A stretch of DNA of 64,000 nucleotides, taken from IMG/VR virus record IMGVR_UViG_3300020448_000002, positions 32,001 through 96,000 of that record, one strand, 5' to 3'. The translations under genes were made by a program, and so were the position numbers. This stretch comes from a virus. The notes under the pieces were generated by a model. It made no database searches, was not told where the DNA came from, and saw only the letters and a list, made by a program, of their open reading frames with translations. Below, one piece after another: positions 1 through 64,000 of this stretch; the first letter of the stretch is position 1, and each line of letters starts with the position of its first letter.

Positions 1-558
1 AAACAAGAAGATAATCTCAATGATTTTATTTTTGAGTCAACAATAACAGATAAGAATGTATGTAATTATCTCATAGATCAATATCATATGATGGAGCATC
101 ATGAAGGTAGAGTGACTAACGATCAGGAAAATTATGTCAATACTAATCTCAAGGTGACAGAGCAAAGTTTTGTTGAACCAGATCATGCATCATACCAGAC
201 AATATATGAGTGTATAGATAAGACAATTAGTGTACTACCATATAGATTAACTATACCTTATGATATAACTTCAACTGAATATTCTATTAGCAGGTATCTA
301 AAAGGTGAAGGACACTTTGGAACTCATGTTGACACAACATCCAAAATGACTTATAATAGGCTTCTTGCCTTTATATTATATCTTAATGATGTTGAAGAGG
401 GTGGTGAGACTGAGTTTATGACTCTTAACAGATTAGTAAAACCAGAAACAGGAAAAGTATTATGCTTTCCTTGTAATTTTATGTTTCCTCATAAAGGCAA
501 TATCCCTTTATCGAATGATAAGTATATTGTCACAGCATTTGTTTATCCAACATGGTAA
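1..558 (+). CDS. 2OG-Fe(II) oxygenase (prolyl-4-hydroxylase-like), 5'-truncated by window edge
   Basis: Frame is open from base 1 (KQEDNLNDF...) into the ORF-track start at 88; HVD...LAFILYLNDVEEGGETEF...FPH...KY motifs. Confidence 0.85.
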   Translation, partial: KQEDNLNDFIFESTITDKNVCNYLIDQYHMMEHHEGRVTNDQENYVNTNLKVTEQSFVEPDHASYQTIYECIDKTISVLPYRLTIPYDITSTEYSISRYLKGEGHFGTHVDTTSKMTYNRLLAFILYLNDVEEGGETEFMTLNRLVKPETGKVLCFPCNFMFPHKGNIPLSNDKYIVTAFVYPTW

Positions 559-1127
559 ATAACGATTACAACCTATATGAAATAGATCCAATTCATTGTG
601 GTATAGATCACGATAAATTGATTCAATATGTAGATATGTCAAAGGCTAAGTTTGAACATCTATTTGATGATAAAACACATGATACTGGTTTTTATTATCT
701 CTACAATTTCTTTAGTATAGCTTCATGTAATAAGGATACATATAACTTATATCTTGCTATTGTAAAATGTATAAGAGATTATTTTGAAGTCCATAATATA
801 TCAAAAGATAGTGTATGGATGCAAATGTGGATGAACATACATGATAAAGATCAAGTGCTTAAATCACATTCACATGACTTTCCTTATCATGGTTATTTCT
901 CATTAACACCTCAAAATACTGACACAGTATTTCAAGATAAAAAAGATGGAAAAGAACTGTATAGAATAAAGAATGCACCATACAATGTTTATATTGGACC
1001 TGGTGAAAGACATCATTATGTTGATGTATTAGAAGACTATACAGATAAGAGAATTACATTTGGATTTGATATTCAAACTGATGATTTAGTTACTGGTAAC
1101 TTTAGTTTTATACCTATAGCATTATGA
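552..1127 (+). CDS. Putative 2OG-Fe(II) oxygenase (HxH type)
   Basis: WMNIH...HSH...HGYF...HYV...RITFGFD pattern; overlaps neighbours. Confidence 0.65.
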   Translation: MVNNDYNLYEIDPIHCGIDHDKLIQYVDMSKAKFEHLFDDKTHDTGFYYLYNFFSIASCNKDTYNLYLAIVKCIRDYFEVHNISKDSVWMQMWMNIHDKDQVLKSHSHDFPYHGYFSLTPQNTDTVFQDKKDGKELYRIKNAPYNVYIGPGERHHYVDVLEDYTDKRITFGFDIQTDDLVTGNFSFIPIAL

Positions 1128-1705
1128 TTAAATTAGATTTATATTTCCCTACACCAGTATGGTGGACTGATACTGATCTTGATAATGAATATTTGAAAGA
1201 TATAGTATATAATAAAAAATTTGAATTTCCAGAAGGAAGAGAAGTTAGCAACTATGGTGGATGGCAGTCAAATGTATTTCCACCGACTCATGTACCACCA
1301 TTATGTGATGTAGCAGTTCAAATAGCAGATCAAGTTAAAGAAGATATGGGATTAAATCCATATACTGAATTTAATGTAGATAATCTATGGTGTAATGTTA
1401 ATAATCAAGGTAACTCAAATCAAATACATATACATCATGGTTCATTCTTATCTGGTGTATATTATGTTCAAGCTAATGAGAATAGTGGTGATCTTATATT
1501 TTACAAAGATTTTAATAAGCAGTATATGAAAACTACTGATACAGAAATAGTAAAACATACACCATTAACAGGGGATGTAGTAAGATATAAACCTAAAACT
1601 GGTAGGATGTTTGTATTTCCTGGTTGGTTACCACACTCAGTAGATAAGTGTATAGATAATACAGATAGAGTATCTATTGCCTTTAACATATTAATTAAAA
1701 AATGA
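1124..1705 (+). CDS. 2OG-Fe(II) oxygenase, TIGR02466-like
   Basis: FPTPVW, WCNVN, HIH...LSGVYY, FPGWLPHSV, RVSIAFN. Confidence 0.85.
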   Translation: MIKLDLYFPTPVWWTDTDLDNEYLKDIVYNKKFEFPEGREVSNYGGWQSNVFPPTHVPPLCDVAVQIADQVKEDMGLNPYTEFNVDNLWCNVNNQGNSNQIHIHHGSFLSGVYYVQANENSGDLIFYKDFNKQYMKTTDTEIVKHTPLTGDVVRYKPKTGRMFVFPGWLPHSVDKCIDNTDRVSIAFNILIKK

Positions 1706-2220
1706 TTCAAACTATTGAAAATATTATTCCAGAGTCACAACAAGATTTCCTTTTAGGTAAGGTAACTGACTTAAGTTTTGACTGGCATTTTATGCCTGAT
1801 GTAACTTATGTTGAAGAAGGAGAAGGAATAAACACACCAGGTTTTGCTAACCTATTAGTCAATGGACAGAAGAGATCAGGTCAGGAAGATTTATTCATGT
1901 CGCCACTTATTGAGTACTTACATAGATCAAATCAAAAGTTAGGTGCATTGCATAGAATGAGATTAGGAATGACTTTGAACAATAGCAATGAAGAACATAA
2001 CAATAAACATATTGATTTTAACTTTCCACATCAAGTAGGATTATATTATATGAATGATAGTGATGGTGATACACTTGTTTGGAATGATGATATTGTCACC
2101 AGAGTATCACCTAAGAAAGGAACATTTTTTGTATTTGATGGAGCATTTCCTCATGCTAGTTCATGCCCTAAAGAATATTCAACAAGAATTGTTTTAACAT
2201 ATAATTTTACGACAAGATGA
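1702..2220 (+). CDS. 2OG-Fe(II) oxygenase
   Basis: HID...LYYMNDSDGDT...PKKG...FDG..PHAS...RIVL. Confidence 0.8.
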   Translation: MIQTIENIIPESQQDFLLGKVTDLSFDWHFMPDVTYVEEGEGINTPGFANLLVNGQKRSGQEDLFMSPLIEYLHRSNQKLGALHRMRLGMTLNNSNEEHNNKHIDFNFPHQVGLYYMNDSDGDTLVWNDDIVTRVSPKKGTFFVFDGAFPHASSCPKEYSTRIVLTYNFTTR

Positions 2221-2819
2221 GACTACCATTAACAGTAGTAGATAACTTTTTTGAGACACCAACACTTGTAAGAGACTTTGCACTACAGCAAGAGTTTTTT
2301 AAAGGTGACAGAGGAAATTGGCCAGGTATTCGCACTAAGTTTATAGAAGACTTAGATGTAGATTTCTTTAATAAATTACATGATAAACTATTAAATCATA
2401 TACCTAGAAATTATAAAGGATTTCAACATTTAGAAGCAACATTTCAATTAATAGATGAGACATATAAAAGAGGATGGGTTCATAATGATGACCCTAAGTG
2501 GAATGTAGCAGGGATTATATATTTAAACAATGATAAACCTAAACAAGATTGTGGAACTACATTTTATGATGATAGAGATACATCAAATGATGGAGATCAC
2601 AGTAAAGAATATTGTGATGATGTAAATGATAATATAGGACAGAATGAAGACGTAAGAGATAAAGTTAATTCAAGATGGGTACCTAGTATGCTTGCAGAAA
2701 ATAGATGGAATCGTTGTGTTATATCTGACTCAACTAGATGGCATAGTGCAGGTAGATTCTTTGGACATAATAAAGAGACATCTCGATTGACTCTAGTATT
2801 CTTTGGGAGGGTAATATGA
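2217..2819 (+). CDS. 2OG-Fe(II) oxygenase-like (DUF6445-like)
   Basis: VVDNFF..P, WPGIRT, WVHND, AGIIYL, NRWNR, WHSA, RLTLVFF. Confidence 0.75.
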   Translation: MRLPLTVVDNFFETPTLVRDFALQQEFFKGDRGNWPGIRTKFIEDLDVDFFNKLHDKLLNHIPRNYKGFQHLEATFQLIDETYKRGWVHNDDPKWNVAGIIYLNNDKPKQDCGTTFYDDRDTSNDGDHSKEYCDDVNDNIGQNEDVRDKVNSRWVPSMLAENRWNRCVISDSTRWHSAGRFFGHNKETSRLTLVFFGRVI

Positions 2820-3400
2820 GTGATATTATAGTTGTAGATGATTTCATATCAAAAGATTATGCAGATCACATAGAACAAATAGTTAATGAAAAAGATTTCC
2901 CACTACATTTTAGAAAAGGAATTGTAACCAACGAGGATGAACATGAAGGTAATGTAGATGGCTTCATTCATATGTTATATGAAGTCCAAAAACCTGTATC
3001 ACCTAGATTTCCGTTAATATATCCTATGGTATTAAGTATTACTGAAGCAACTGGTATTAAATGGAATGTATTAGAAAGATTGAGATTTAATTTCATGTTA
3101 GGTAATAGGACATCTAAACTATTACATCATGCACCTCATACTGATAACTATACACCACACTGGTCAGCAATATATTATGTTCATGATTGTGATGGTGATA
3201 CATTCTTTTTCGATCAAAAACTTACTAAATTTACAGAAGAAGAATCATATCAAATAACATACGATAATAACTGGACAATTAAAAAACGTGTATCACCTAA
3301 GAAAGGGAGACTGGTAATGTTTGATGGTGTAAGATTTCATGCTAGTTCATTCACTAAAACTAAACCATTTAGATGTGTACTTAATATGAATTTCTCATGA
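2816..3400 (+). CDS. 2OG-Fe(II) oxygenase
   Basis: PHTD...IYYVHDCDGDT...PKKGR...FDG..FHAS...RCVLN; paralogous to 1702-2220. Confidence 0.8.
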   Translation: MSDIIVVDDFISKDYADHIEQIVNEKDFPLHFRKGIVTNEDEHEGNVDGFIHMLYEVQKPVSPRFPLIYPMVLSITEATGIKWNVLERLRFNFMLGNRTSKLLHHAPHTDNYTPHWSAIYYVHDCDGDTFFFDQKLTKFTEEESYQITYDNNWTIKKRVSPKKGRLVMFDGVRFHASSFTKTKPFRCVLNMNFS

Positions 3401-3930: not shown

Positions 3931-3968
3931 CCACAGGGTATGGACAATAAGAAAATATGTGCTAGAAT
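3912..3968 (+). promoter_or_regulatory. Degenerate palindrome/early promoter cassette
   Basis: ATGCCAAC-N6-TCTGACCAC, TGGACA at 3941, TAGAAT at 3963. Confidence 0.4.
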
Positions 3969-3991
3969 AATAGAGTCCATAATATCCGACA

Positions 3992-4261: not shown

Positions 4262-4327
4262 TACTGTAATCATGTGTCAGCATGATACTATATAATTTGT
4301 AGTTACTATTTTTTATTAATTTACAAC

Positions 4328-6154: not shown

Positions 6155-6183
6155 GTGACATGGTGGTAATAGTGTGGTATACT
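6128..6183 (+). promoter_or_regulatory. Degenerate palindrome/early promoter cassette
   Basis: ATGACAAT-N6-ACTGACCAC then extended -10 TGGTATACT (TATACT 6178-6183). Confidence 0.5.
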
Positions 6184-6205: not shown

Positions 6206-6649
6206 ATGACTCAAATCGAACTCAACAAAACATACACTTATGAGTGTGATGCTACATTTGGCACACTATCACAAGAGAAAGTTAATAAGTTATTTACTGA
6301 TGGTAGAAGAGCATCTGGATTTCTTGAGATTCAATTAGAAGAGTGGTTTCCTAATCTTACATTTGTAGATGGTAAAGGTTATGACCACGTTGATACAGAT
6401 GGACTCAAGTATGATGCAAAATGTTTTACCAAAGGTGGTTCAAAGTTTTGTTCATCAAAGTATTTGGGTGTAGGTAGATCATTAAATGTTGAAGAGCATG
6501 AAGCACACGCAGAAAATATTATCTACATTTTTACAGATGTGGTAGAATTTCCAAAGGTTCAAGTTAAATTTGTAAAAGGTTCTGACTTAATTCAGACTTA
6601 TAAAAAAGGTTCAATTCCATTCTCACATAGAAATGCTTTATTTGGATGA
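6206..6649 (+). CDS. Putative PD-(D/E)xK restriction-endonuclease-like protein
   Basis: Helix Glu (FLEIQL), then GYDH...KYDAKC (D...DxK); overlaps the methyltransferase start. Confidence 0.5.
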   Translation: MTQIELNKTYTYECDATFGTLSQEKVNKLFTDGRRASGFLEIQLEEWFPNLTFVDGKGYDHVDTDGLKYDAKCFTKGGSKFCSSKYLGVGRSLNVEEHEAHAENIIYIFTDVVEFPKVQVKFVKGSDLIQTYKKGSIPFSHRNALFG

Positions 6650-7418
6650 TTGTATTACAGGGATGCAGAAACTAGATGAGAAATCAGTTGATGCAGTTGT
6701 AACATCCCCACCATACAACTTAAATATTAAATACAGTAAATACAACGATAAGAAACCAGTAGATCAATATCTATCATGGTTAGGAGACGTATTTGCTGAA
6801 TGTAAACGTGTACTTAAAGATGACGGTCATCTATTTGTTAACATGGGATATTCTAATGTTAATCCTACAATAGGTATAGATGTATGTTGTAAGTTAAGAG
6901 AGAATTATATACTACAGAATAATATTGCATGGATTAAAAGTGTTCATACTGATAAGACACATGGACATTTTAAACCTATCAATAGTAAGAGATTCTTATG
7001 CCCAACATGGGAACATCTATTTCATTTTACAAAAGATGGTAAGATAGAGATCGATAGATTATCAGTTGGAGTGAAGTATGAATACTATGAAGCAAACATT
7101 CGTGGTAATAATACTAAGGACAATAAACCTAACCTAAGAGACAAAGGTAACTCATGGTTTATACCATACGAAACTAGACAAAGTAAACTAGAGAAAGGTA
7201 ACCACCCCGCTATTTTTCCAGTTAAACTTGTAGAGGATTGTATTAAACTTACTGGTAAAAGTAGTGGTATTGTTTTAGACCCATTCATGGGAACTGGAAC
7301 TACAGGAGTAGCAGCAGTTAACTTAGGATGGGATTATATTGGATATGATATAGATGAAGACTATGTTAAGTATTCTAAACAAAGATTAGAAGGGGGATTG
7401 AAATCATTATTAAAATGA
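6633..7418 (+). CDS. Beta-class N4-cytosine/N6-adenine DNA methyltransferase
   Basis: VVTSPPY catalytic motif near N-terminus, HPAIFP, VLDPFMGTGTT SAM-binding motif near C-terminus. Confidence 0.92.
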   Translation: MLYLDDCITGMQKLDEKSVDAVVTSPPYNLNIKYSKYNDKKPVDQYLSWLGDVFAECKRVLKDDGHLFVNMGYSNVNPTIGIDVCCKLRENYILQNNIAWIKSVHTDKTHGHFKPINSKRFLCPTWEHLFHFTKDGKIEIDRLSVGVKYEYYEANIRGNNTKDNKPNLRDKGNSWFIPYETRQSKLEKGNHPAIFPVKLVEDCIKLTGKSSGIVLDPFMGTGTTGVAAVNLGWDYIGYDIDEDYVKYSKQRLEGGLKSLLK

Positions 7419-9657: not shown

Positions 9658-9741
9658 ATGAATAACATAGGTTTAGAAGTTGTATTCTGGACAGTATTAA
9701 CAATTTATCTCTTAAACAAGTTAGGAGTCTTTAAAAAATGA
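9658..9741 (+). CDS. 27-aa single-pass membrane peptide
   Basis: MNNIGLEVVFWTVLTIYLLNKLGVFKK; ATGA overlap with the methyltransferase. Confidence 0.5.
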   Translation: MNNIGLEVVFWTVLTIYLLNKLGVFKK

Positions 9742-10862
9742 AGGACACTATATTATTTGGAGATTGTAAGGAGACACTAAGTCAATTTGCACCACAGAGT
9801 GCTAGAACTTGTGTTACATCCCCACCTTATTATGGACTTAGGGATTATGGCACAGCAACATGGATAGGGGGAGACCCTAATTGTAACCATAGGAGAGATA
9901 GTAAAGTCAAACCTGAGAATTGTAATACAGGACATAAGAATCACGATGAAATGTATGGAGTAGGGGATGCAATATATAAAACTGTTTGCCCTAAGTGTGG
10001 TGCAATAAGACAAGATAGTCAAATAGGACTAGAAGAAACACCAGAAGAATATATTGAAAGTCTTGTAGATGTATTTCGTAGTGTCAGGGATGTTTTAACT
10101 GATGATGGAACTTTATGGGTTAATTTAGGAGATAGTTATTATAACTATAGACCAGGAAAAGGTCAATCATATCCTAAACAGTCAGTATCTAAAACTAAAC
10201 AAGATTTACCTGATGAATGTAATAAACGTGGTAACAAATTAGATGGATTAAAAGAGAAAGATTTAATTGGAATACCTTGGATGTTTGCGTTTGCTATGCG
10301 TAAAGATGGATGGTATTTAAGACAAGATATTATCTGGCATAAACCTAATCCAATGCCAGAAAGTGTAAAAGATAGATGTACTAAATCACATGAGTATATC
10401 TTTTTATTCAGCAAAAACAGAAAGTATTTTTATGACAACGAATCAATCAAAGAACCAGTCAAGCAAGACTGGGGAACAAGAGACCGCACAAAAGGTAAGT
10501 ATCATAATATTGGTAGTGGCTTACAACCTCATAGTGGTCTTACCAAGTCTTATGAACGGAAAAATAAACGATCTGTTTGGTCTGTTACTGTAAAACCATA
10601 CAAAGAAGCACATTTTGCCACTTATCCACCTGACTTAATTGAACCTTGCATCAAAGCAGGAAGTGAAGAAGGAGATACAATACTTGACCCATTTATGGGT
10701 GCAGGAACTACAGCGGCAGTTGCAAAGTCACTTAAACGTCATTATATTGGATGTGAACTCAATGAAGATTATGGTAACTTAATTCAGAAGAGAATTGATG
10801 ATTATCAACCAATTAAAGAAATGGCACAAAATGCATTGACTGATCTCATGAGTGGAGTATAA
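9738..10862 (+). CDS. Beta-class N4-cytosine/N6-adenine DNA methyltransferase with Cys-rich insert
   Basis: CVTSPPYYGLRDY, WHKPNPMPES, HFATYP, LDPFMGAGTT. Confidence 0.92.
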   Translation: MKDTILFGDCKETLSQFAPQSARTCVTSPPYYGLRDYGTATWIGGDPNCNHRRDSKVKPENCNTGHKNHDEMYGVGDAIYKTVCPKCGAIRQDSQIGLEETPEEYIESLVDVFRSVRDVLTDDGTLWVNLGDSYYNYRPGKGQSYPKQSVSKTKQDLPDECNKRGNKLDGLKEKDLIGIPWMFAFAMRKDGWYLRQDIIWHKPNPMPESVKDRCTKSHEYIFLFSKNRKYFYDNESIKEPVKQDWGTRDRTKGKYHNIGSGLQPHSGLTKSYERKNKRSVWSVTVKPYKEAHFATYPPDLIEPCIKAGSEEGDTILDPFMGAGTTAAVAKSLKRHYIGCELNEDYGNLIQKRIDDYQPIKEMAQNALTDLMSGV

Positions 10863-22351: not shown

Positions 22352-24378
22352 TGCAACCAAATAATTTAACAGCATTAGATTTTGGTGATATTAAGGCATC
22401 AATCAAATCATATCTAAGAACTAGGACAGAGTTTACCGATTATGACTTTGAAGGTGCTGCTTTATCATATCTAATAGACACATTAGCATATAATACCTAT
22501 TATACTGCCTTCAACGCTAATATGGCGATGAATGAGGCATTCTTACCATCCGCTACAGTAAGAGATAACGTTGTTAATATAGCAAAACTACTAAACTATG
22601 TTCCGACCTCTATAGTTGCTTCTAGGGCAACTGTATCGTTGGTAGTTCAATGTCAGCAAACAAGTGATGTATATCCAAGTACAGTAACCTTGAAAAAGGG
22701 TGCAATACTACAGGGTGGTTCCTTTATGTGGAACATTCTAGCAGATACTACAGTTTCTGTCGATCCAACAACAGGAATTGCAAACTTTAACAGTTTAGTT
22801 GTCAAACAGGGAACAATTCTTAACTTCTCATACGTAGTTAATACATTTGCTTCTCAAATTTACAAGATTCCTTCAGAAAATTGCGATATATCAACTTTAT
22901 CAGTTAATGTAAAAGCAACCGAGACATCCACAACCTCTGATTTATACACTAGAGTTGATACTATCAGTAATCTTACCGCTACATCACGTATTTACTTCAT
23001 CTCAGAAGGTGAGGACATGCGTTATGAGTTGAAATTTGGAGATGATAGTATTGGTAGAGCATTAAGTGATGGTGAGGTTGTAACACTAGAGTATCTTGTT
23101 ACTGACGGTGAACCTGCTAATGATGTCAATATATTCAACTTCATTGGTAGACTATCAGATAGTGCAGGTAGATCATATACTTCACAAGCGGTAACTATGA
23201 CTTTGAATGAGAAGTCAGGTTATGGAGAGAGTGCTGAGTCTATAGAATCTATTAAATATAATGCTCCTAGGTATTATTCCTCACAGTATAGAGCAGTAAC
23301 TGCTCAAGATTACGCAATCATCACTAAAAAAGTGTATGATAACGCACATTCCGTAGTTGCGTATGGTGGAGATTCACTAAATCCTCCAATTTACGGTAAA
23401 GTTTACATTGCTATTAAGACAAAGACAGGATCTTTGCTTAATGATCAAACTAAAAAGAGTATTGCTGCGGATTTACGCGGTTATGCGATGGCATCTATCG
23501 ACCCTGTGGTCATTGATCCAGAAAATGTATACATCTATCCTAAAGTTTTTGTACAATATGACACGGGATGCGGAAGTGATACATCAACTATTAAGACAAA
23601 TGTATCATCTGCAATAGAAGATTGGGCAACACAGACAGAAATAAACAACTTTAACTCAACATTTAGATCATCTGCATTTGAAAAGGCAATTACACTAGCA
23701 GACAAGTGTGTTAGTGACGTTTCACTTCAAACTACAGTATTACGATATATTCTACCTACTACCAATCAAACTAATACTTATAGCATCTCTACTGGATCCG
23801 CACTCTATAATAGTGCTCCTTCTAAAGACGGTAGTGATGGAACTAATCCAAAAGAACCAATTCTCCTATCAGGATCATTTAGAACATCAGATAGACCAGG
23901 TGTTGATCAACAGTTTGAAGATGATGGATACGGAAACTTGAGAACTTACTACAATACAGGAACAAGAAAGATCTATACTAATAATGCTGCAGGAACTTGT
24001 AACTATGATACTGGTGAAATTGCTTTTGGACCTGTTGCAATTATCGGTGCGGGTGCAAACTTCTCAACAACTGGTGTAAATATTACTAATACTTCTACAG
24101 GAGCAGGGTCTGTAACTGATTCAACATTACTTCCTGTAGATTTACAAATTCCCGTTCAATTTATTCCAGCGAACTCAAATAGCATTCCTGCCTCAACTCC
24201 TGGTACAATTATTAATATTGTGTTACCAGAAATCACAGTTGCACCTGTAGGAACCGCACCACCTCCCACTATACCACTAAATAGTTTGACACCGACTATT
24301 TTTGACCAGACACCATCAACTGTGGCAATCACAACAAGTCTGGGCAGCACAACTAACTTAAATACTACCTCTTATTAG
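22351..24378 (+). CDS. gp6: Baseplate wedge subunit gp6
   Basis: LDF..IK, FTDYDFEG, LAYNTYY..FNANM..NE.FL.SA..R, FGD, RAVTAQDY. Confidence 0.92.
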   Translation: MQPNNLTALDFGDIKASIKSYLRTRTEFTDYDFEGAALSYLIDTLAYNTYYTAFNANMAMNEAFLPSATVRDNVVNIAKLLNYVPTSIVASRATVSLVVQCQQTSDVYPSTVTLKKGAILQGGSFMWNILADTTVSVDPTTGIANFNSLVVKQGTILNFSYVVNTFASQIYKIPSENCDISTLSVNVKATETSTTSDLYTRVDTISNLTATSRIYFISEGEDMRYELKFGDDSIGRALSDGEVVTLEYLVTDGEPANDVNIFNFIGRLSDSAGRSYTSQAVTMTLNEKSGYGESAESIESIKYNAPRYYSSQYRAVTAQDYAIITKKVYDNAHSVVAYGGDSLNPPIYGKVYIAIKTKTGSLLNDQTKKSIAADLRGYAMASIDPVVIDPENVYIYPKVFVQYDTGCGSDTSTIKTNVSSAIEDWATQTEINNFNSTFRSSAFEKAITLADKCVSDVSLQTTVLRYILPTTNQTNTYSISTGSALYNSAPSKDGSDGTNPKEPILLSGSFRTSDRPGVDQQFEDDGYGNLRTYYNTGTRKIYTNNAAGTCNYDTGEIAFGPVAIIGAGANFSTTGVNITNTSTGAGSVTDSTLLPVDLQIPVQFIPANSNSIPASTPGTIINIVLPEITVAPVGTAPPPTIPLNSLTPTIFDQTPSTVAITTSLGSTTNLNTTSY

Positions 24379-39300: not shown

Positions 39301-42300
39301 ACCAAACTGCTCATACATTTGTTCGTGCTAAAGTTAATGGTTTAACAAGATCTGGTGAAACACTAAAACTTGCTAAAGATGCATTATCATTTACATGCTC
39401 ACAAGATAATGATGCTACTGTTCATTCTTATCCTAGAGTTGATGATTCTGTTTATAATACTGCTATTCCAATTTGGAGTAATGGTAGCACTAAGATGACT
39501 GCTCAAAGTGCAACTTATAATACTGCAGAAGGATTATTAATTATTACTATACTGAATCATGGTTTAACAGTTGGAACTGAAATTAGATTAGAAAATAATT
39601 CTCTTGTCTTTACATGTGCTAAAGATGGCAATAAAACAGAGCATTCATATCCAAGACCTAAAGATCCATATGCTGCTAGATGGTTAAGAATTAAAGCGGT
39701 TACTGATCATACATTCACAGTGTTTATTGGTGAAGCAAGTTCTACAGGTCAATTTGCTCATACATTTGTAAGAGCAGTTAAAGATGGTATTATCAAACGT
39801 GATAACACTGTTACTGTTAACGTTGGTGCTACTCCAACTAAGGCGTATACTCCATCTGCTGCAACTTATAATGCTAGTACTGGTGCTTTAGAATTAAATA
39901 TTGGATCACATAGTTATCCTGCTCCAACACAACATACACCAACTGATGTTGCTTACAATCCTGTTAGTGGTGTAATGACTCTGACTATTGCAGGTCATAA
40001 CTTCTCTAATGGTGAAAAAATTAAGATTGCTGATAATGGTATTAAATTAAGTTGTCCTTATGGTGGTGCAACTGGAACTGCTGCACAGAAAGATTATCCA
40101 CGTTCTACTGACCCAGTTAGCAATAAATGGATTCCAATATTCAACGTAACTACAGATACTTTTGATGTTCAAGTTTTAGATTCAACTCCTTCAACTAACG
40201 TTGATACTCATACATTTGTAAGTGCAGTTACTAACTGTGTTAGCAAGGCAAATTACACTGTTAAACTTGCTCCTGATTCATTACTAATGACATGTGATAT
40301 GGATAGTGGTGCTACTAAACATGTATATCCAAGATCTAATGTTGCTACTCATACTCCATCTACAGGTACAAGTTACAACCCAGTAACAGGTGCTCTTACA
40401 GTTTCAATTCCTACTGAATCATTTACTGCTAGTGCTGCAAATTATAATGTTACAACAGGTGCTTGTGTATTAACAATATCTCAGAATGCAGGATCATATA
40501 ATGTTACTGGTGCAACTTATTCACCTTCTGTTGGAACTTTAGTTCTTACACTTGGATCACATAATTTAACAACTAATGACAGAATTAAAATTACTCCAGA
40601 ATCACTTAGATTTACTTGTGATTATAATAATGATAATAATACAACTGTTCATCCTTATCCTCGTGCTGCAGGTGCATACAACTCAACAAATTCAAAAGCA
40701 GATTACGCTTATGATACATGGTTAGACATTAGTGCAGTTACAGGAACAACAATTACTGTAAACGTTAACGGTGGTCAAGGTGCTATTACTGATATTAGTA
40801 ACCATACATTTGTTGGTGCACTTGATGGTGCAGTTCAAGTTGGTCATGGTATCGTACCTGGCAATAAGGTTAAACTTGCTCCTAACTCACTAACATTTAC
40901 TTGCACATTAGATGGTAACTCTGCACAGAAATCTTATCCTAGAGCAACAGGTGCTAATACAACAAGTGGTGCTGACTATGCTTATGATAAGTGGCTCAGA
41001 GTTATGGATGTTGGAGATAATACAATAACTGTTAACTTGAATGGTGGTCAAGGTGCCATCTCAGATACATCAGCACATACATTTGTTTCTGCTACTGCTA
41101 ATGGTATTACCCTTGGACACGGTATGGTTGCTGGTACACCTATTAAGATCAAAGATGGTGGCGTAATATTCAGATGTGCTCATGATAATAATGCTACTTT
41201 ACATCCTTATCCTAGATCAACTGACCCTGCAAGTGATAAGTGGTTGTTTATTAAGAATGTAAGTGATACTCAATTTGAAGTTGATATTTTACAAGGAACA
41301 ACTCCTACAAATACTACAACACATACCTATGCAGGTTCTATTGATAATTGTATTGTTCAAGGAGATCCACTTGTTGCTCAAGCAATTCCGATTGATGCAG
41401 TTACAGGTAATACTATTACTATCAATGCTTTAGATGGATATACACCTTCATTTACACCAAACCATACTTTAGATTCTGTAGCAACATCTCAGTTTACACC
41501 AACTAATGCAGTTTACAATGGAACTACAGGTCTAATGACCATAACAGTTCAAACTGCTAACTTCCAACCTTCTACTGTTGCTTATAATGCGATAACTGGT
41601 GAGATGCAAATGACTATTGGAACTCATAGTTTGGCAGTTGGAGAAGAAATATTAATTGCTCCTAATTCACTAACATTTACTTGTGATTTTAATGGAGATG
41701 GAAATACTACAAATAAAACATATCCTAGAGCAACAGGTGCTGCAACTCCTAGCGGTGCAGACTTTGCTTACAATAATCAATTAGTAATTACAGACACCAC
41801 AGCAACAACTATTACTGTAAACGTAAATGGTGGTGGAGGAGCAATTACTGATACAACCAACCATGTATTTGTATCGGCATTAGCAGATGCAGTCAGTGTT
41901 TCACATGGAATCAAGAACGGTGAAAAAATTAAGATTGCTGATAATGGTATTACATTTACTTGTACTCATGATAGTAATGCTACAAACCATCCATATCCAA
42001 GAGTAACTGATCCTGCTAGTGGTAGATGGTTAGATGTTCATAACGTCACTAATACTACTTTCGATGTTCAAGTATTAGATGAAATTCCTTCTACAAATAC
42101 TACAACTCATACATTTGTTTCTGCTACAACTAATGCGATTACAAGAGCAATAATTTCAACTGGTGGTAACTATAAGCATAAGTTTATATCTGGTCTTACA
42201 AACGGTGTTAGAACTGGTGGTGACTATACTCATACATTTGTTTCTGCTACTTCTAACGGTATACATGTTGCAGGTGATTCAGTTTACATTGATACTAATT

Positions 42301-45300
42301 CACTAAGATTTACTTGTTCTCAAGATGATCATTTAACACAACATGATTATCCACGTCCTACTGATCCTGCAGCTAAGCATGTAATGGAAGTTAAGGCTAA
42401 AGATGATAATAGATTTGTAATTAACGTTGGTAAATCTCCACAAGACAAACGTTATGATCACTTATTTGTTAGTGGCGATGCTAATTCTATCACTAAGTCT
42501 AAGTATGTAATTACAAATTGTTCTGACGTTTACACAACTACAAACAACTTAATTGATATTCTTAGAGATACAATAACTCAAGCTGCTTTACCATCTCCTG
42601 TAGATCATCTTGCAACTATTACTGATCTTCTTCCAGTAGATGAATTTGTTGGTGGAACAATTCATTCATATCTTGAAGTACCATTCAAAATTACATATGA
42701 AGATGATGCATCAGAAATGGTATACACAGATAGAATTGATGTATTCAGTCGTTACAGATTCCGTGATGCTGCTAATTTAATTCGTCAAAATACAGGTGCT
42801 ATTGTAGATAAAGCATCTTATGATATGTTAATTCGCTACCCTGCTCTTTATCAGGATATGCCTAGAAACCAAGGTGGTACATCTACAGATGGAATCGAGC
42901 GTTGTAAGACTGACCTTACACAGGTTTGTGGTGGAGTTGCTAATGATATAGAAAATGGTGGTAATAAGAATGTTGTTACTGCTGCAGGATTCTACCTTGG
43001 TCAAAATAATGAAATTCAACATATTAGATTACAGTTACCACAATCAATATATGTTCATAACCGTTTAGTATACTACTTAAAGCAAGCAATAGATGGAAGT
43101 TTAACAACTGATAATACAGAAAATCTTATTGTTGGAGATTGGGGTATTACAAATGATGATAGTGTAACAACTTATGATGTATATGATGCATCTTATGACG
43201 CAGCAAGTGGTGATTTAGTGATGACTCTTGCATCAAATACTGGAACATTTAGTGTTAGTGGTGCAGTCTATAATCCAACATCAGGTGATTTAGTTCTTAC
43301 AATCGGAACTCATACTTTAACAACTAATGATAAGGTTGGAATTGCTGAGGAATCATTAGTATTCACTTGTGATTACAATGGTAATGGTAATCAAACTCAG
43401 AAGAGATATCCTAGATCATTTGGTGCTGGTACAACAAATGGTGCTGATTATGCATACAATCAATTCCTTGATATTACAGCAGTAAATCAATCTGGTGGAA
43501 CAATCACTGTTAACGTTAATGGTGGTCAAGGTGCTATTACAGATACCACAACTCATAACTTTGTTGTTACTCCATCTGCTACAAATGCAGTTACTGTTGG
43601 ACACGGATTTACTGCAGGAGATAGTTTACAGATTGCTAATGAGGGATTAACATTTACATGTTCAATGGACGGTAATGTTGCTAATAAAACATATCCTCGT
43701 GCAACTGATCCTGCATATGGTAAGTCACTTACAATTACAAATGCTACTGCTACAACAGTAACTGTTAATGTAGGAGCTTCTCCAGAAGTTAAGTATACTC
43801 CAACATTCGCAACATATACTGCTACAACTGGTGTATTAGTTCTTACTATTAGTAACCATAATTTAGAAGTTGGTCAACCAATTAAGATTAATCAAGGTGC
43901 ATTGAAGTTTACTTGTGCAATGGATGGAAATGAATCTATCAAATCTTATCCAAGAACTAGTGATCCATTCTACAACCAACCTATTGATATTACTGCAACT
44001 ACAGCAGATACTATTCAGTTAAACGTTGGGCAGAGTCCATTAGTTTTACACAACGTTTCTAATGCTACTTACGATCCTACTACAGGTGTAATGGTATTGA
44101 CAATAGGAGCTCATACTTTGACTGCAGGTACTAGCATTAAACTTGCTACTGAATCATTAGTCTTTACTTGCACATTAGATGGTAATACAATTCAGAAATC
44201 ATATCCTCGTGCTACTACTGCTAATACAGGAAGTGGTGCTGATTATGCATACGATACTGCAATCAATATTGATTCTGCAGATACAGCAGCAGGAACTATT
44301 ACTATCAACGTAAATGGTGGACAAGGTGCTATATCTGATACATCAGCACATACATTTGTTTCTGCTAATGCAGGTGCTGTAAGATCAGGTGGTGATTATG
44401 TTCATACATTCCATTCTGCAGAGACTGAATGTGTAATCTCAGGTGGTGAATATACTCACGTATGGGCAGGTGGTACTGCTACCGATGTAGTTAGTGTTAT
44501 CGGTGATTGTGCAGATGTTAAGAGTAATATCGAATCATTAATTAATACAGTTAATGATATTATTGCACCTACAGGTCTAGATTATGATACTGCAGGTAAT
44601 AGACTTTACTTTAACAGAGAACTTATTGCTTCAGATGTAACTTCTAGAATGTTAACTGAGTTTACATATCAAGCAGGTCCTACAACATACTTTGCATTCC
44701 AATTTGGTGGAACTAATATAACAGCAGCAGAATTCCAAGCAGATGTTGAGGTAGTTATTCAGAATCTAATATCTGATTTACAGACTGGTGGTAATAATAG
44801 TTCTATCAGGGCACTTGAAGAAACATATCTCAATGCAGATGGAACACTTCATAGAATTGAAGATATGCTTTTACCAACCGTTTATGGTATGGAAGTTCTT
44901 AAGGAAGCAGGTAGAGAAGCAATTAGAAATAACATATACAATGCATCAGAAAATATTCCTTTCGGTGGATATGTAACAAACGCTGCTCAAACACCTTTCA
45001 GAGATGATTTAGAGACTGTAGATATTGATCAAGTAATTGGAGATTGGAATAATCTTCTTGATCATGTAATTGAATTCTTCTCACCTGGCAAAAAAGAGGC
45101 TAGGAATGGTATGAAGAATATTCTTTATAATGTAAACTATTATAAGAATGAATTAAACAACCTTGTTAATACTCAGTTTGGTAATGGTGCTTGGGTTTAT
45201 AATGATTTTGTTGATGAGTTAGTTGGAAATATAGTTCAAGACTCTGTTACAACTCCTATAGATCATAAGACTACAGCAAGAAGACTAACTCTTACAGGTG

Positions 45301-52700: not shown

Positions 52701-53912
52701 GGTAAGTTCTTCGGTCTAACAAGAGGTGTAAACTTTAACTATGACCAGAGAATTATATTAGATGCAACTCAGAATAATCAGCAAGACGTATCCACATATA
52801 ATTTTAATGTTGGTGATAGAGTAATTCGTAGAATAGATAATGCAAATAATAAAATTGCAAAGGTATATGACTGGAATCCAAATAGTAGAGAACTTCTAGT
52901 AACATTTGAAGTTGATGAATTAGCGTTCATCGATGGTGGTATTCCATCTACTTTAGATGCTATTGTGCAGTTTGATGGAGGTGTTGCTGCTAGTGCATCC
53001 AATGCTTTCAATCCTCATCAAATTACCTTTGAAGCAAACTCAACTATTATTACTTTGACTGATCCTATAGGATCAATCTTAGATACTAAGTTTGTTGATA
53101 CTGCAGAAAACGCAGGAGCTGGTGATGGAATTCCAGACTTGTTTAATACAGGTACTGATTATGAGAGTCAGATATCACTTGATGGTGGTATTTACAATTC
53201 ATTATATGGTATTGAAGAGACTCAAGGTGGAACTAACACAACTCTATTTGCAGTTGCCGATCAAATAAAAGATGGTTCTATTCCGTTCAAATATGCAACT
53301 GTAGAAGTTGCAGGAACATTGACTGATGGTGTAGATCACGTTGCAAAATTAAATGTATATGTAGATCTAAATCAAGGTAACGGTCAGAACTATGTTGTTA
53401 ATGATCTTGTTACAGGTGATATATCAGGTGTAAGAGGAACTGTTCTTGGATGGGATCCTAATACTGGATTACTAGAAGTTGGTAACGTAGTTCCTTATAA
53501 TACTGGTAATATCAATATAGGTATTGCAGGTTACTTCTATGAGTTCTCTGCTAGAGAAACAGTTATTGATTTCATTGTTCAGAATCCAGGTACTAACTAT
53601 ACTGCACCTCCTTCGGTAACAGTAGAGAACATTGGTGATATACAAGCAACAGCAAGTGTTAACATGACTGCTGCAGGTGACCAAGTTGCTTCACTAACAA
53701 TCACAAACGGTGGTTATGGTATAGCTCAGAACATTGATGAAAGTTTTGTAACACATCCGACAGTTACATTTACTAATAATGCTAGTGATAGCACAGGATC
53801 TGGTGCGGTTGTTCAAGCCGTTCTTGGTGGTGAACGTATTGCAGGTAACACTGGTGCGAGTTATAGGATCAAGAGAATTGAATATCAAGCACAACTTCAG
53901 TCTAAGGAGTAG
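49743..53912 (+). CDS. Virion structural protein with YHYH-like domain, cupredoxin-like inserts and GSGY repeats
   Basis: GIMANGV, HSKILGMSFDGYPIYGPWG, LDAYNG...PEYPNGTYAYY; HPM...YYHCKFHRYM. Confidence 0.7.
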   Translation: MARTVPGSGAVIEPIFDEIFGVRAVEVTDGGSGYSQADPPRLTISGCGTPDEEALLYPIIDSDSGKIIHVRVLSRGRGYDPLRLQIIPEQETPNVVTSFDVKRIFQSHPNSPTTATFTDDRLRIVSDNHPKPSQHILAEREPGGSSVVVDRSFDQTFIYRGGKDVPHPDAANRQYQGDKAMGIMANGVLLHTPEWGQDGNPPPGFAIDAVKYPYIKNNNAYDAVIDNQVYYYQTNKLRNEWNLDNGVFDWGRIRQFVWQVKTEHDNILIELGNLDQTIGSVEVGRIVDCISSTAKGEVAKIVKDNLGNPTKIYLRTLTGVPFQENDVCLGANGFQFKVQGIPTTFPNGIFYIEFGEEAHEFGAFTPGVFYFAPEGIKVQRNYLIIWDQSDSSNNTGGMQHPMQFSTTADGTLNGGTLYYNSTGVTQAPAADYENEYQALFLMNADENSKIYYHCKFHRYMSGYQGDEGYMELASDVDPDPMVNTYYFKNYYQSDANDPNTIDYSRHVDGHSKILGMSFDGYPIYGPWGYNSSGAVAREVSGYRLKTTAELPGNRPQVNTVSNVTYTVTVSNNLFNFDGSRPAFLTLERGKTYIFNQDDASNDSLFLFVGTSEDGWHVGSPPVIGDTSYLLAGDHVKYYIDGAETTYNTYISAFNTASQREVRFHVPVNAPIALYLFAYSQSGVGIRCVVEGYVLGDLTDDYIHDSTVGSLDAYNGKFGPTPEYPNGTYAYYMTEDSSSVPTYPYAIGDAFYGTPLFEGDTVPAQVEIFPAGAQGDVVLNASGQIAYVKMTQFGDNYFGPAQAKILGGQGTGALASPIVQTVTGLSLLSTGREYATPPTLIFEGGGGGVGAEGAAEIDTFGKVTAINIVDEGEFYQEPPYILITGGGGIGAKAVARIDQGVIVGIDITDSGSGYINPPNIVFTKLVNLKRKTRARQSYNSSAIYLTGLVKDLAASDTEIFTDTTTGFPGSGSLIVNTETITYTGKSTGKFFGLTRGVNFNYDQRIILDATQNNQQDVSTYNFNVGDRVIRRIDNANNKIAKVYDWNPNSRELLVTFEVDELAFIDGGIPSTLDAIVQFDGGVAASASNAFNPHQITFEANSTIITLTDPIGSILDTKFVDTAENAGAGDGIPDLFNTGTDYESQISLDGGIYNSLYGIEETQGGTNTTLFAVADQIKDGSIPFKYATVEVAGTLTDGVDHVAKLNVYVDLNQGNGQNYVVNDLVTGDISGVRGTVLGWDPNTGLLEVGNVVPYNTGNINIGIAGYFYEFSARETVIDFIVQNPGTNYTAPPSVTVENIGDIQATASVNMTAAGDQVASLTITNGGYGIAQNIDESFVTHPTVTFTNNASDSTGSGAVVQAVLGGERIAGNTGASYRIKRIEYQAQLQSKE

Positions 53913-53955: not shown

Positions 53956-55488
53956 ATGGCAGCTCTATTAACGGATCAATTTAGAATTTTTTCAGCACAA
54001 AAATTTATTAAGGCTCTTGAAGGTCCCGTTGCGACTCAAAGTGATGATGCAGCAGGTGCTACAAGAGATAGGTTATATCTTTTCATAGGTAGACCACAAA
54101 GTTGGGATAATGAAAACTCACCCCCACAAGCGGTGGATTCATTTGCCGAATTTTCTGGTTCATATGATGATATGGTTTCAATGAAGCGTGTGCTGGCTTC
54201 TGATACTGTCCAAGTTGTGCGTAGAATTGACTGGGTTTCCCCAGAACAAACTACTGGTGGATTAGGTTTTACCTATGACATGTATCGTCACGACTATTCT
54301 CCAAGTAAAACTGCTGCTTCTGGTGCTACTAAACTATATGATTCTGATTTTTACGTTGTAAACTCGCAGTATCAAGTATATAAGTGCATCTATAATGGTA
54401 CATCTCCTTCAGACCCTAACGGAAAACCTTCGACTGTTGAACCGACTGGAACGTCTACTTCTATTATCACTACTGGTGATTCTTATCGTTGGAAGTATAT
54501 GTATACTATTCCAGTTGCGTCAGTGCTTAAGTTCTTCTCCAATGACTACATGCCTGTCTTTACCAACGACGCGGTAAAAACAAACGCTGTTGCAGGAGAG
54601 ATTGATACTGTTGTTATTAACGCAGCAGGATCAGGTTATAACAACGGAACCTATGACAACGTTGCTATTAATGGAGATGGAACTGGTGGTCGTGTTTCTA
54701 TTGTTGTAGATGGTGGTAAGATTATATCTGCTACTGTTACTTCTGGAGGAACAGGATATACCTTTGGTAAAATATCTGTTGATAACGTTACTGGTATTGG
54801 AACAGGTACTGGTGCACAAGTTGATGTTATCGTTCCACCACCAGGTGGTCACGGTGCTGACTCTGTTGTAGAACTTGGTGCTTTCAGAGTTATGATCAAC
54901 GCTAAACTCTCATATGATGAGGGTGCAGGTGACTTCCCAGTTGATAACGACTATCGTCGTATTGGTCTTATTACCAATCCTTTAAAATATGGAACTGAGG
55001 AATTAATTTCAGACTTGACTGTATCTGCTACTAAGGCAGTTATATTCTCACCTACATTCCAAGGTAACTACGTTCCTGATGAAATTATTACACAAACAAG
55101 AGTTGTTGGTGGAACCAACGTTACTGCTCGTGCTCGTGTTGTTTCTTGGAACCCAATAACAAAACTATTAAAGTACTATCAGAATGCTGTAGATGGTATC
55201 TTCCCAGAAGTTACAGGAACACAGAATGAATTTGATGGTTCAAACGTGATTAATGGTGCTACATCTGGTGCTGCAGGGCAACCCGATGTTAACTTCCCCG
55301 CCATACCAAACTCTTCTTCTAGAACAATCAACAATACTGAGTATGACTTAGGTATGAAGTTTAACAATGGTTATGCTAAACCCGAAGTTTCCTCAAGTAG
55401 CGGTGACGTAGTTTACATAGATAATAGAAGATCAATCAGTCGTGCTAACGACCAAGTAGAAGACATCAAAATCGTAATCGAGTTCTAA
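53956..55488 (+). CDS. gp8: Baseplate wedge subunit gp8
   Basis: LYLFIGRPQSW...PP, RRIDW, YDMYRHD, VYKCIYNG, WKYMYTI, QVEDIKIVIEF. Confidence 0.9.
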   Translation: MAALLTDQFRIFSAQKFIKALEGPVATQSDDAAGATRDRLYLFIGRPQSWDNENSPPQAVDSFAEFSGSYDDMVSMKRVLASDTVQVVRRIDWVSPEQTTGGLGFTYDMYRHDYSPSKTAASGATKLYDSDFYVVNSQYQVYKCIYNGTSPSDPNGKPSTVEPTGTSTSIITTGDSYRWKYMYTIPVASVLKFFSNDYMPVFTNDAVKTNAVAGEIDTVVINAAGSGYNNGTYDNVAINGDGTGGRVSIVVDGGKIISATVTSGGTGYTFGKISVDNVTGIGTGTGAQVDVIVPPPGGHGADSVVELGAFRVMINAKLSYDEGAGDFPVDNDYRRIGLITNPLKYGTEELISDLTVSATKAVIFSPTFQGNYVPDEIITQTRVVGGTNVTARARVVSWNPITKLLKYYQNAVDGIFPEVTGTQNEFDGSNVINGATSGAAGQPDVNFPAIPNSSSRTINNTEYDLGMKFNNGYAKPEVSSSSGDVVYIDNRRSISRANDQVEDIKIVIEF

Positions 55489-62717: not shown

Positions 62718-62938
62718 TGAAAGTTCCAATTAAAGACATTGAAAATTGGTATAAAGATGATGTAACAGGAGCAGTCTCGTGTTCTGATCGTGCTAAGTAT
62801 GAACAATACATGGCTGCATATAGAGCAGATCTGAAGGAAAAAGAAGATTTTAAGGCTTTACAAAATGATGTTTATAGCCTAAAATCAGATATGAGTGAGA
62901 TAAAATCTCTCTTGTTAACGTTAGCAAAAAATTCATGA
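62717..62938 (+). CDS. Small coiled-coil protein
   Basis: ORF track; LKSDMSEIKSLL; coupled. Confidence 0.7.
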   Translation: MKVPIKDIENWYKDDVTGAVSCSDRAKYEQYMAAYRADLKEKEDFKALQNDVYSLKSDMSEIKSLLLTLAKNS

Positions 62939-63177
62939 CAATGGAAAAGATCGGTCAAGATCAAATGCTCTCCCAATTTAAAGAGAGATATAGTGGGTTG
63001 ATCAAAGAAAACCAGGAATTAGCTGGTAAAATTAAACAAAATGAAGTTCAAGCATTGAAACTTCAAGGTGCTATAGAAGCATTGGAGTATTATTCTCCAC
63101 CAGGTGACGACGCAGAATCCCCTCCAGAAATTGCAGAGGATGATGTAACTTCCGAGTCTCCTGAGTTAACTGAATAA
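62935..63177 (+). CDS. Small coiled-coil protein
   Basis: ORF track; KLQGAIEALE. Confidence 0.7.
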   Translation: MTMEKIGQDQMLSQFKERYSGLIKENQELAGKIKQNEVQALKLQGAIEALEYYSPPGDDAESPPEIAEDDVTSESPELTE

Positions 63178-63185
63178 ATCATTTT

Positions 63186-63212
63186 AAAGGGGGACAGGAG
63201 TTCCCCTTTTTT
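63186..63212 (+). terminator. Intrinsic terminator
   Basis: AAAGGGGGAC-agga-GTTCCCCTTTTTT. Confidence 0.75.
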
Positions 63213-63217
63213 AGTGA

Positions 63218-63225
63218 CATAAATA
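63218..63225 (+). promoter_or_regulatory. T4-type late promoter
   Basis: CATAAATA immediately after the terminator. Confidence 0.65.
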
Positions 63226-63264
63226 ACTTGGAAGCATGTTCTCATAGAGTTGTCCTAAAATAAA

Positions 63265-64000
63265 ATGGCAAATAGATTACAATTAAGAAGGGGTGGTGCA
63301 CAGGAATGGGCAAACTCAAACCCTACTCTTGCTCAAGGTGAATTGGGTATTGAGTTAGATACTGGTCGATTTAAGATTGGTGATGGAGTATCAGCATGGA
63401 ATACTTTGCGATACGAAAGACCCGTTGAATCTATATCTAATACTGCAAACACTCTTGTACAAAGGGATGCCGACGGTAACTTTGCTGCAGGTGTTATAAC
63501 TGCAACTCTAATTGGTAACGCTTCTACTGCTGCTAGACTTTCTTCAACTCGACAAATAACTTTATCTGATGACCTGAGTGCCACAGGAACATTTGATGGA
63601 TCACAAAACTTAAACCTTGCTGCAGAACTTTCTTTAGTTGCAACTCTTCCACATTACGATGGAACAGCTTCTTCATCTGGAACTTATAACAAAGTAACTG
63701 TAGACGCAAAAGGTAGAATTACCGCAGCGATAGACTATACTACAAGTAATAATGGAACGCTTGCTGATTACGGTCTAGACGGGACTACAGAGGGTGCTTC
63801 TGCTCAACCTTATGATTTAGACCTAGTTGCTATTGCAGGTCTAACAACCACTGGTATGATCGCTAGAACTTCTGGTGGTGCTATGGCAACCAGAACGATT
63901 ACTGGTACTGCAGGAAAAATACAAATTAATAATGGTGCAGGTGTTAATGGTAATCCTACTATTAATCTTATAACAACTACTGTAACTCCAGGTGATTATA
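63265..64000 (+). CDS. Tail fibre protein, N-terminal part (runs off window)
   Basis: Read manually: MANRLQLRRG...W...NPTLAQGELG.E.DTGRFKIGDG..W..L.Y (Mtd-N-like), LVQRDADGNF, VTVDAKGRI. Confidence 0.8.
   Translation, partial: MANRLQLRRGGAQEWANSNPTLAQGELGIELDTGRFKIGDGVSAWNTLRYERPVESISNTANTLVQRDADGNFAAGVITATLIGNASTAARLSSTRQITLSDDLSATGTFDGSQNLNLAAELSLVATLPHYDGTASSSGTYNKVTVDAKGRITAAIDYTTSNNGTLADYGLDGTTEGASAQPYDLDLVAIAGLTTTGMIARTSGGAMATRTITGTAGKIQINNGAGVNGNPTINLITTTVTPGDY

Follow-up and report, generated by a model that had tools for sequence, protein, structure and literature searches.

Near-complete loss of the asymmetric word YGCTGGD/HCCAGCR from a cyanophage contig and a patchy set of its T4-like relatives, with escape from host defence as a candidate explanation

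The asymmetric seven-position word YGCTGGD (reverse complement HCCAGCR; Y = C or T, D = A, G or T, H = A, C or T, R = A or G) has been almost completely removed from both strands of an uncultured viral contig and from several separate lineages of related T4-like cyanophages, in part through synonymous codon changes, a pattern that appears best explained by escape from a motif-specific host defence. The stretch analysed here, termed the window, comprises 64,000 nucleotides and corresponds to bases 32001-96000 of the 126,269-bp contig (IMG/VR record IMGVR_UViG_3300020448_000002). The contig has an estimated completeness of 71% (CheckV) and a G+C content of 35.7%, is approximately 95% coding and carries 124 of its 128 genes called from open reading frames (ORFs) on the + strand. 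Its nearest relatives in GenBank at the DNA level are the Prochlorococcus T4-like phages P-SSM3, P-SSM4 and P-RSM3, which align to a portion of a baseplate gene with approximately 74-75% identity, while uncultured relatives in IMG/VR are closer (92-96% protein identity in the baseplate gene).

Depletion of GCTGG and CCAGC

Expected counts were derived from two codon-shuffle nulls of 200 shuffles each. In null 1 synonymous codons were permuted within each gene, preserving amino acids and codon usage, while the stricter null 2 additionally holds the first two letters of a codon and the next base constant, and hence the junction dinucleotide. The original prediction, made from the letters of the window alone, had tallied eight copies of GCTGG and two of CCAGC, and both tallies are correct. 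GCTGG occurs at positions 37957, 41130, 43425, 53118, 54192, 56712, 61788 and 63022, and CCAGC at 24166 (predicted at 24165, one base off) and 32925. The expected numbers are 41.5 (null 1) or 35.5 (null 2) for GCTGG, with shuffle minima of 29 and 24, and 19.1 or 15.0 for CCAGC, with minima of 9 and 8, such that both words, each strand taken separately, lie below all 200 shuffles. The codon preferences described with the tallies were likewise recovered, with Ala before Gly written as GCA 88, GCG 4 and GCT 6 times, and Pro before Ala as CCT 33, CCC 5 and CCA 2 times. Furthermore, GCAGG (101 copies) and CCTGC (33 copies) are as abundant as had been claimed, and the control words are common (ACTGG 139, TCTGG 70, CCTGG 28, GCTGA 52, GCTGT 32, GCTGC 66).

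Over the whole contig, GCTGG and CCAGC together number 25 against 126.8 expected under null 1 (z -11.9) or 115.5 under null 2 (z -14.4), and under the stricter null no other of the 499 pentamer pairs is more strongly depleted. On the top strand, 18 copies of GCTGG are found against 80-85 expected (lowest of 200 shuffles: 63-67) and seven of CCAGC against 36-42 (lowest: 26-30). The pentamer CAGTG, a further candidate avoided word under a Markov expectation (8 vs 54.6), was rejected, as its depletion is only mild under the codon null (32 vs 45-47).

The avoided word is YGCTGGD/HCCAGCR

Examination of the flanking bases upheld the depletion of the pentamer but not the bare pentamer as the avoided unit; by its flank dependence, the word is best described as YGCTGGD, with HCCAGCR as its reverse complement. 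Six lineage representatives (G000, S-TIM4, P-RSM1, P-HM2, P-SSM4 and P-TIM40; 1,031 kb in total) together contain YGCTGGD 18 times against 535 expected, while YGCTGGC is only about halved (21 vs 42). The window contains three copies of YGCTGGD/HCCAGCR against 30.2 expected, with a minimum of 18 among 200 shuffles, and the contig four copies of TGCTGG/CCAGCA against 62. By comparison, AGCTGG/CCAGCT is found 14 times on the contig against 37.5 expected, a ratio matching that of AGCT itself (117 vs 322), and the rarity of both AGCTGG and GGCTGG does not exceed the level predicted by the avoidance of AGCT and GGCT. Where Ala-Gly follows a T on the contig, GCT is used in 3/110 of the GCT and GCA cases, as opposed to 242/382 before other codons starting with G; after an A the corresponding fractions are 9/71 and 32/144.

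The same dependence is evident in isolates. P-HM2 contains TGCTGG five times (90 expected) and CGCTGG once (14 expected), but AGCTGG 55 times (50 expected), while P-SSM4 contains three copies of TGCTGG (82 expected), none of CGCTGG (13 expected) and, in 178 kb, none of YGCTGGD (91 expected). The density of YGCTGG is 0.038/kb in six avoiding genomes and 1.33/kb in nine non-avoiding genomes. The base following YGCTGGD in the 18 survivors is A in nine, C in eight, G in one and T in none, against expectations of 164, 65, 175 and 131, respectively; when grouped, 17 are followed by A or C and one by G or T, against 229 and 306 expected. An additional, weaker preference thus seems to be present. Recognition may extend one base beyond YGCTGGD, or sites followed by A or C may be weaker targets. 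CCAGCR carries an adenine at position 3 while YGCTGG has none; the word is asymmetric, with an internal A on one strand only, as is typical of the targets of type III restriction systems.

Eight loci (L013, L014, L023, L026, L036, L039, L049 and L050) were considered as partial avoiders and rejected, as the word that they avoid is another one, with CTGGA at its end. In this clade GCTGGA/TCCAGC is depleted (20 vs 72) and GCTGGT kept (159 vs 142), while CCTGGA/TCCAGG (23 vs 67) and GGTCCA/TGGACC (7 vs 47) are also rare.

Selection acts on the DNA word

Counts in the six strand and frame classes were compared between avoiding (654 kb) and non-avoiding (711 kb) genomes:

YGC TGG: 0 in avoiders, 22 in non-avoiders
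nYG CTG G: 4 in avoiders, 37 in non-avoiders
nnY GCT GG: 22 in avoiders, 609 in non-avoiders
CCA GCR: 9 in avoiders, 143 in non-avoiders
nCC AGC R: 0 in avoiders, 45 in non-avoiders
nnC CAG CR: 0 in avoiders, 44 in non-avoiders

All six classes are depleted, and the effect therefore resides in the DNA and not in a preference among Ala-Gly codon pairs, in agreement with the original claim of DNA-level selection. Prochlorococcus chromosomal loci of comparable base composition (G+C 32-42%) show an observed/expected ratio of approximately 1 for GCTGG, and likewise for AGCT, GTAC, CAATTG and CCTGAA. On the contig, GCT accounts for 15/214 Ala codons before a GG codon, while T is kept at 48-81% of A+T in Thr, Ser, Pro, Val and Gly codons in the same position.

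The route of removal can be followed in 14 orthologous gene pairs (14,052 codons) shared with a non-avoiding sister contig. Of 61 sites in the sister, a single one is kept in the contig, 31 are lost with identical amino acids, 26 are lost with an amino-acid change and three are unaligned. Among the 31 synonymous removals, 18 convert TGCTGG to TGCAGG and two convert it to AGCTGG. The replacements are mostly T-to-A transversions, unlike a deamination pattern.

A translational preference for certain Ala-Gly or Pro-Ala codon pairs, or a mutational or repair bias, could in principle generate such a deficit with no selection on the DNA word, particularly as approximately 89% of the expected sites fall into two contexts, nnY GCT GGn and CCA GCR. 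The four minor frames are nevertheless depleted too, the effect varies with the nucleotide that precedes the Ala codon and with the one that follows the Gly doublet, and the other codons preceding GG retain their T. Together with the lack of the effect in sister phages and hosts of the same composition, and the transversions noted above, this largely refutes such an origin, which we regard as very improbable. The notion that enrichment of GCAGG/CCTGC (282 vs 188-192 expected on the contig) is the primary signal and the loss of GCTGG its by-product is refuted and can be given almost no weight, because frames whose substitutes differ from GCAGG are also depleted and P-HM2 avoids YGCTGG (6 vs 104) and GCAGGT/ACCTGC (16 vs 122) alike, and two of the 31 synonymous removals altered only the preceding Y, to A; the excess is the compensating side of the loss and not its cause.

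Surviving sites

The eight GCTGG and two CCAGC copies of the window, of which three are full YGCTGGD/HCCAGCR sites, are distributed as follows:

41129..41135, + strand: full site TGCTGGT in a giant ORF of 8033 amino acids (aa), read as GGT GCT GGT ACA (Gly-Ala-Gly-Thr) and retained in the relative G004
43424..43430, + strand: full site TGCTGGT in the same giant ORF, in an identical Gly-Ala-Gly-Thr context
24165..24171, - strand: full site, TCCAGCG on the + strand and CGCTGGA on the - strand
54191..54197, + strand: TGCTGGC, probably a weak site or none, because its class (YGCTGGC) is only about halved
37957..37961, + strand: GGCTGG, with a purine before the pentamer and hence outside the refined word
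53118..53122, + strand: AGCTGG, outside the refined word
56712, 61788 and 63022, + strand: AGCTGG, outside the refined word
32925: CCAGCT, outside the refined word

Relative G004 harbors six surviving sites, located between 65.7 and 75.9 kb on its contig and for the most part in the Gly-Ala-Gly-Thr context. Recombination between repeated domains may re-seed sites in the giant ORF.

Distribution among cyanophages

Comparison with related cyanophages, as the original prediction had proposed, shows the trait to be patchy, polyphyletic and lineage-specific. Of the 53 related loci in IMG/VR with a length of 12 kb or more, 18 are depleted (GCTGG below approximately one third of its Markov expectation), with the others near expectation or intermediate. 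In a quick maximum-likelihood tree of a gp6 baseplate fragment (64 rows, representing 63 of 80 loci and G000, with loci shorter than 8 kb and rows of fewer than 600 aligned residues excluded), the avoiders form at least three separate clades with non-depleted sisters. Locus L011, with 84% identity to the window, is one such non-avoiding sister (GCTGG 41, GCAGG 35).

For isolates, TGCTGG and CCAGCA were counted together over whole records. Avoiders include four phages of strain NATL2A, namely P-SSM4 (3), P-SSM3 (4), P-RSM3 (3) and P-TIM40 (8), two of MED4, P-HM1 (6) and P-HM2 (5), and P-RSM1 (8) of MIT9303, as well as metaG-MbCM1 (10) and S-TIM4 (3) of WH8102, the latter sharing 99.7% identity with P-RSM4 (MIT9303) over the 22-kb locus compared. 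Six Synechococcus-type records, five isolates and one S-SM1-like record, are non-avoiders: S-SSM5 (166), S-SM2 (182), S-ShM2 (170), Syn33 (223), Syn9 (210) and the S-SM1-like record (207). Overall, 8/10 T4-like isolates from Prochlorococcus are depleted vs 1/7 from Synechococcus (Fisher p 0.015, uncorrected for relatedness). Together with the separate clades, this is in line with variation by host or ecology and not by phylogeny alone. A link to host strain MIT9303, suggested by P-RSM1 and P-RSM4, was rejected, as P-HM1 and P-HM2 of MED4 and the four NATL2A phages also avoid the word.

Other avoided words

Additional words are depleted on the contig, including AGCT (117 vs 322-417), GTAC (199 vs 330-456), CCGG (0 vs 19-47), GCGC (0 vs 12) and CAATTG (3 vs 53-56). 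CCTGAA/TTCAGG (3 vs 62-98 on the contig; 0 and 1, respectively, in the window) represents a second asymmetric avoided word, and its spread among the relatives is unlike that of YGCTGGD. Under the codon-shuffle null, AGCT and GTAC are avoided in 20/20 T4-like cyanophage records, while in the podovirus P-SSP7 (L357), which shares its host with P-HM1 and P-HM2, they fall outside the ten most depleted 4-mers.

Many avoided words are private to a lineage, and many of these are restriction-type palindromes. P-HM2 lacks most copies of ACCTGC/GCAGGT (counts above), GGTCCA (1 vs 39) and ATCGAT (0 vs 31), P-SSM4 of GTAAC/GTTAC (78 vs 307) and ACTAGT (1 vs 35), P-TIM40 of GAAC/GTTC (104 vs 586) and CACGTA (0 vs 38), and Syn9 of GAAC/GTTC (258 vs 631), while the S-SM1-like record (IMG/VR G006) contains no GTAC against 290 expected. 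P-SSP7, a MED4 phage like P-HM2, is also poor in ACCTGC (2 vs 17). A mosaic of lineage-private words of this sort is typical of restriction avoidance.

Escape from a host defence

Because the removal is near-total on both strands and sharply dependent on the flanks, and because it is distributed as a mosaic beside other restriction-type words, escape from a defence directed at the motif is the best reading of the data. We infer with moderate confidence that the agent is a host system recognising an asymmetric site. In this scenario, each copy of 5'-YGCTGGD-3'/5'-HCCAGCR-3', on either strand, would have been selected against individually, under attack on unmodified DNA carrying YGCTGGD. Candidate agents would be a restriction-modification (RM) system with an asymmetric site (type IIS-like, IIG or III) or a BREX-like (bacteriophage exclusion) system, residing in natural Prochlorococcus populations met by broad-host-range T4-like phages. 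Loss of the word would work alongside the avoidance of AGCT, GTAC, CCGG, GCGC, CAATTG and CCTGAA and two methylases of the phage itself. Sharp word specificity is expected of a DNA-binding protein, and the patchy, polyphyletic spread beside lineage-private words matches the expectation for escape from motif-specific defences. The presence of complete type III mod-res operons in the host family and the description of a Mod enzyme of Neisseria that modifies CC(m6A)GC (PMC4417156) are in keeping with such an agent.

Several observations weigh against this interpretation, foremost the podoviruses. The word is retained, at 0.7-0.9 TGCTGG/kb, by all six T7-like podoviruses of Prochlorococcus, among them three isolated on MED4 or NATL2A, hosts of avoiding myoviruses. 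In P-SSP7, YGCTGGD numbers 36 against 31 expected, and NATL2A-133, P-SSP10, 9515-10a, P-GSP1 and P-SSP3 contain 35-42 TGCTGG per approximately 46 kb each. This is the main evidence against a host defence, and equally raises the chance of a cause within the T4-like phages. The agent may be missing from the laboratory hosts, or podoviruses may evade it otherwise; with their narrow host range they may never meet strains carrying the system, or they may carry a general inhibitor. Such a contrast in host range is described in a paper on specialist and generalist cyanophages. Furthermore, P-SSM2 and P-SSM7, both isolated on NATL1A, are non-avoiders (331 and 204 TGCTGG+CCAGCA, respectively). The survivors show no purge of one orientation, with a sense:antisense ratio of 29:9 vs 1410:413 in non-avoiders (p 0.85), which argues against the classical type III escape route. 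No host system of this specificity emerged from a search for Mod in 401 host-family genomes or from the literature. RM is described as uncommon, and active defences as few, in marine Prochlorococcus and Synechococcus (PMC6708340), while a large survey (Rusinov et al. 2018, PMC6286503) reports avoidance as common for orthodox type II systems only, rare for type III and absent for types I and IIG. Of the original proposal of host-defence escape, the DNA-level, two-stranded and patchy loss, with its synonymous removals, stands, while its host counterpart was not found.

Of the 401 sampled genomes of the host family, Cyanobiaceae, 19 were matched by a type III Mod model. The four type III loci inspected all contain complete mod-res operons (REase_III E 1e-167 or better; G+C 55-61%). 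A related type III-like methylase of 700-766 aa occurs sporadically in Prochlorococcus-sized genomes (21/401 genomes match at E 1e-30) but is full-length in only about five small genomes; it has no res neighbour at the two Prochlorococcus-sized loci inspected and recurs in three more genomes of this size. Neither these operons nor the methylases could be tied to YGCTGGD. The equal purging of both orientations, with approximately 97% of sites removed, is compatible with a type IIS system, and fits systems acting at every single site (type IIS-like, BREX-like) better than classical type III. A Chi-like recombination hotspot was also considered and rejected, as the host observed/expected ratio for GCTGG is approximately 1 and the phage purges both strands.

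Phage-borne and regulatory alternatives

A less probable but still credible alternative is that the cause lies within the phages, a subset of T4-like phages encoding a DNA-processing protein, such as a nuclease, with YGCTGGD as its target, for instance to degrade host DNA. Host DNA carries approximately 0.5-1 YGCTGGD sites/kb, while the phages would be spared by their own lack of the word. The confinement of the trait to T4-like myoviruses (0/6 podoviruses, including the three from avoider hosts) is in keeping with this. The relevant genes are:

6206..7418, + strand: type II RM-like pair, a 147-aa nuclease-like ORF and a 261-aa N6/N4 methylase with a 17-nt overlap
9738..10862, + strand: second N6/N4 DNA methylase, 374 aa
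12635..12784, + strand: 49-aa early ORF, phrog_14174
118925-119332 of the contig, outside the window (locus L247): phrog_6464 protein, 135 aa, with 385 metagenome relatives

The RM-like pair matches PADLOC profiles (REase_II, E 1.3e-11, for the 147-aa ORF; MTase_II, E 9.6e-80, for the methylase) and is conserved in G007-G009 with 62-79% identity. It was rejected as the cause: homologues of the 147-aa ORF occur in 18 IMG/VR loci, six avoiding and 12 not, and the pair is present in the non-avoiders G007, G008 and G009 and missing from the avoider S-TIM4. The 374-aa methylase, rejected likewise, occurs in avoiders and in the non-avoider G007. The phage's own nuclease, raised as an alternative in the original prediction, is therefore without support, as the nuclease-like gene of the window does not track the trait and no avoider-specific nuclease was found in the gene-content comparison.

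Gene content was compared between five complete avoiders and six complete non-avoiders, with partial contigs in addition. Three genes split the two groups perfectly (5/5 avoiders, 0/6 non-avoiders), namely phrog_6464 (133-135 aa), phrog_2626 (55 aa) and a psbN-like 49-aa protein, while phrog_1784 (241 aa) shows the reverse split (0/5 avoiders, 5/6 non-avoiders). The split favors a phage-borne cause but is confounded with host genus. No avoider-associated gene has a match among nuclease, methylase or DNA-binding families, phrog_1784 is neither nuclease- nor methylase-like, and no protective methylase exclusive to the non-avoiders was found in this comparison. A model of phrog_6464 built from 31 aligned sequences is a low-confidence helical hairpin (predicted local distance difference test, pLDDT, 57.7; predicted template modelling score, pTM, 0.32). 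The phrog_14174 ORF is found in 4/5 complete and 5/5 partial avoiders and 0/9 non-avoiders, an association only, likewise confounded with host type.

One tentative form of this idea, to which we assign a rather low likelihood, is that YGCTGGD serves as a self/non-self mark, with a subset of T4-like phages using an unrecognised nuclease or targeting factor, for which small proteins of the phrog_6464 type would be candidates, to destroy host DNA while their own genomes are free of the word. To our knowledge, this subset of T4-like cyanophages does not have the modified cytosines used by T4.

It is unlikely that what the phages avoid are instead spurious targets for a DNA-binding regulator, be it from phage or host, such as a transcription or sigma factor, or a replication or packaging signal. 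Avoidance of regulatory words does occur here, as TAAATA/TATTTA, which we take to resemble the T4 late promoter, is moderately depleted on the contig (110 vs 178-201). That promoter-like word is reduced to a ratio of only 0.6, however, while both strands of YGCTGGD are purged about equally to approximately 3% of expectation. Moreover, the survivors are nearly all genic (1/39 YGCTGG survivors is intergenic in the six lineage representatives) and no conserved functional copies were seen.

Significance

In most T4-like isolates from Prochlorococcus, approximately 97% of the copies of one asymmetric seven-position word have disappeared, which indicates strong and long-lasting selection per site and contrasts with the few active defences described for these hosts (PMC6708340). 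Site avoidance as such is known; in the literature searched, neither this word with its flanks nor its nearly universal removal from most myoviruses isolated on Prochlorococcus was found described. The search, of limited coverage, yielded no report of HCCAGCR/YGCTGGD as avoided or methylated in cyanobacteria or cyanophages, and for the hexamers CCAGCR, YGCTGG, CCAGCA and TGCTGG it returned primers and unrelated motifs only. The exact word HCCAGCR is now available for look-up in methylomes, REBASE and restriction assays, and P-SSM4, with no full site, and P-SSM2 and P-SSM7, rich in the word, provide a natural host-range contrast. The word may furthermore help to place uncultured cyanophage contigs in ecological groups.

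Comparison with known systems

We know of no characterised enzyme with the word HCCAGCR; BseYI (CCCAGC) covers only part of it. In known BREX words the modified adenine stands at position 5 of a 6-mer, unlike CCAGCR, where position 5 is C. T7-type Ocr proteins inhibit BREX, and such inhibition could explain why podoviruses would need no avoidance. As described in PMC12707154, type 1 BREX acts at asymmetric sites, modifies one strand and does not need inverted pairs of sites.

The description of ModD1, a type III methyltransferase of Neisseria meningitidis that modifies 5'-CC(m6A)GC-3' (PMC4417156), indicates that a one-strand-modifying system with the core of HCCAGCR exists. ModD1 belongs to another phylum and is a phase-variable regulator, while the agent considered here would need the flanks H and R. 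Phage T7, according to PMC12707154, evades EcoP15I by having all 36 CAGCAG sites in one orientation, and similarly adapts its site content to an asymmetric-site system; in the phages analysed here, by contrast, both orientations are purged equally, as the ratios given above demonstrate.

Compared with the cases in the survey (PMC6286503), the word differs in being asymmetric, degenerate and seven positions long, with no known cognate enzyme, and it provides a clear case of the strong asymmetric-site avoidance which that survey describes as rare. In other respects the pattern resembles the site avoidance described there for lytic dsDNA phages, in which a short word is nearly eliminated from both strands of a non-temperate phage by means of synonymous codons, to an extent that varies among related phages and beside other restriction-type words.

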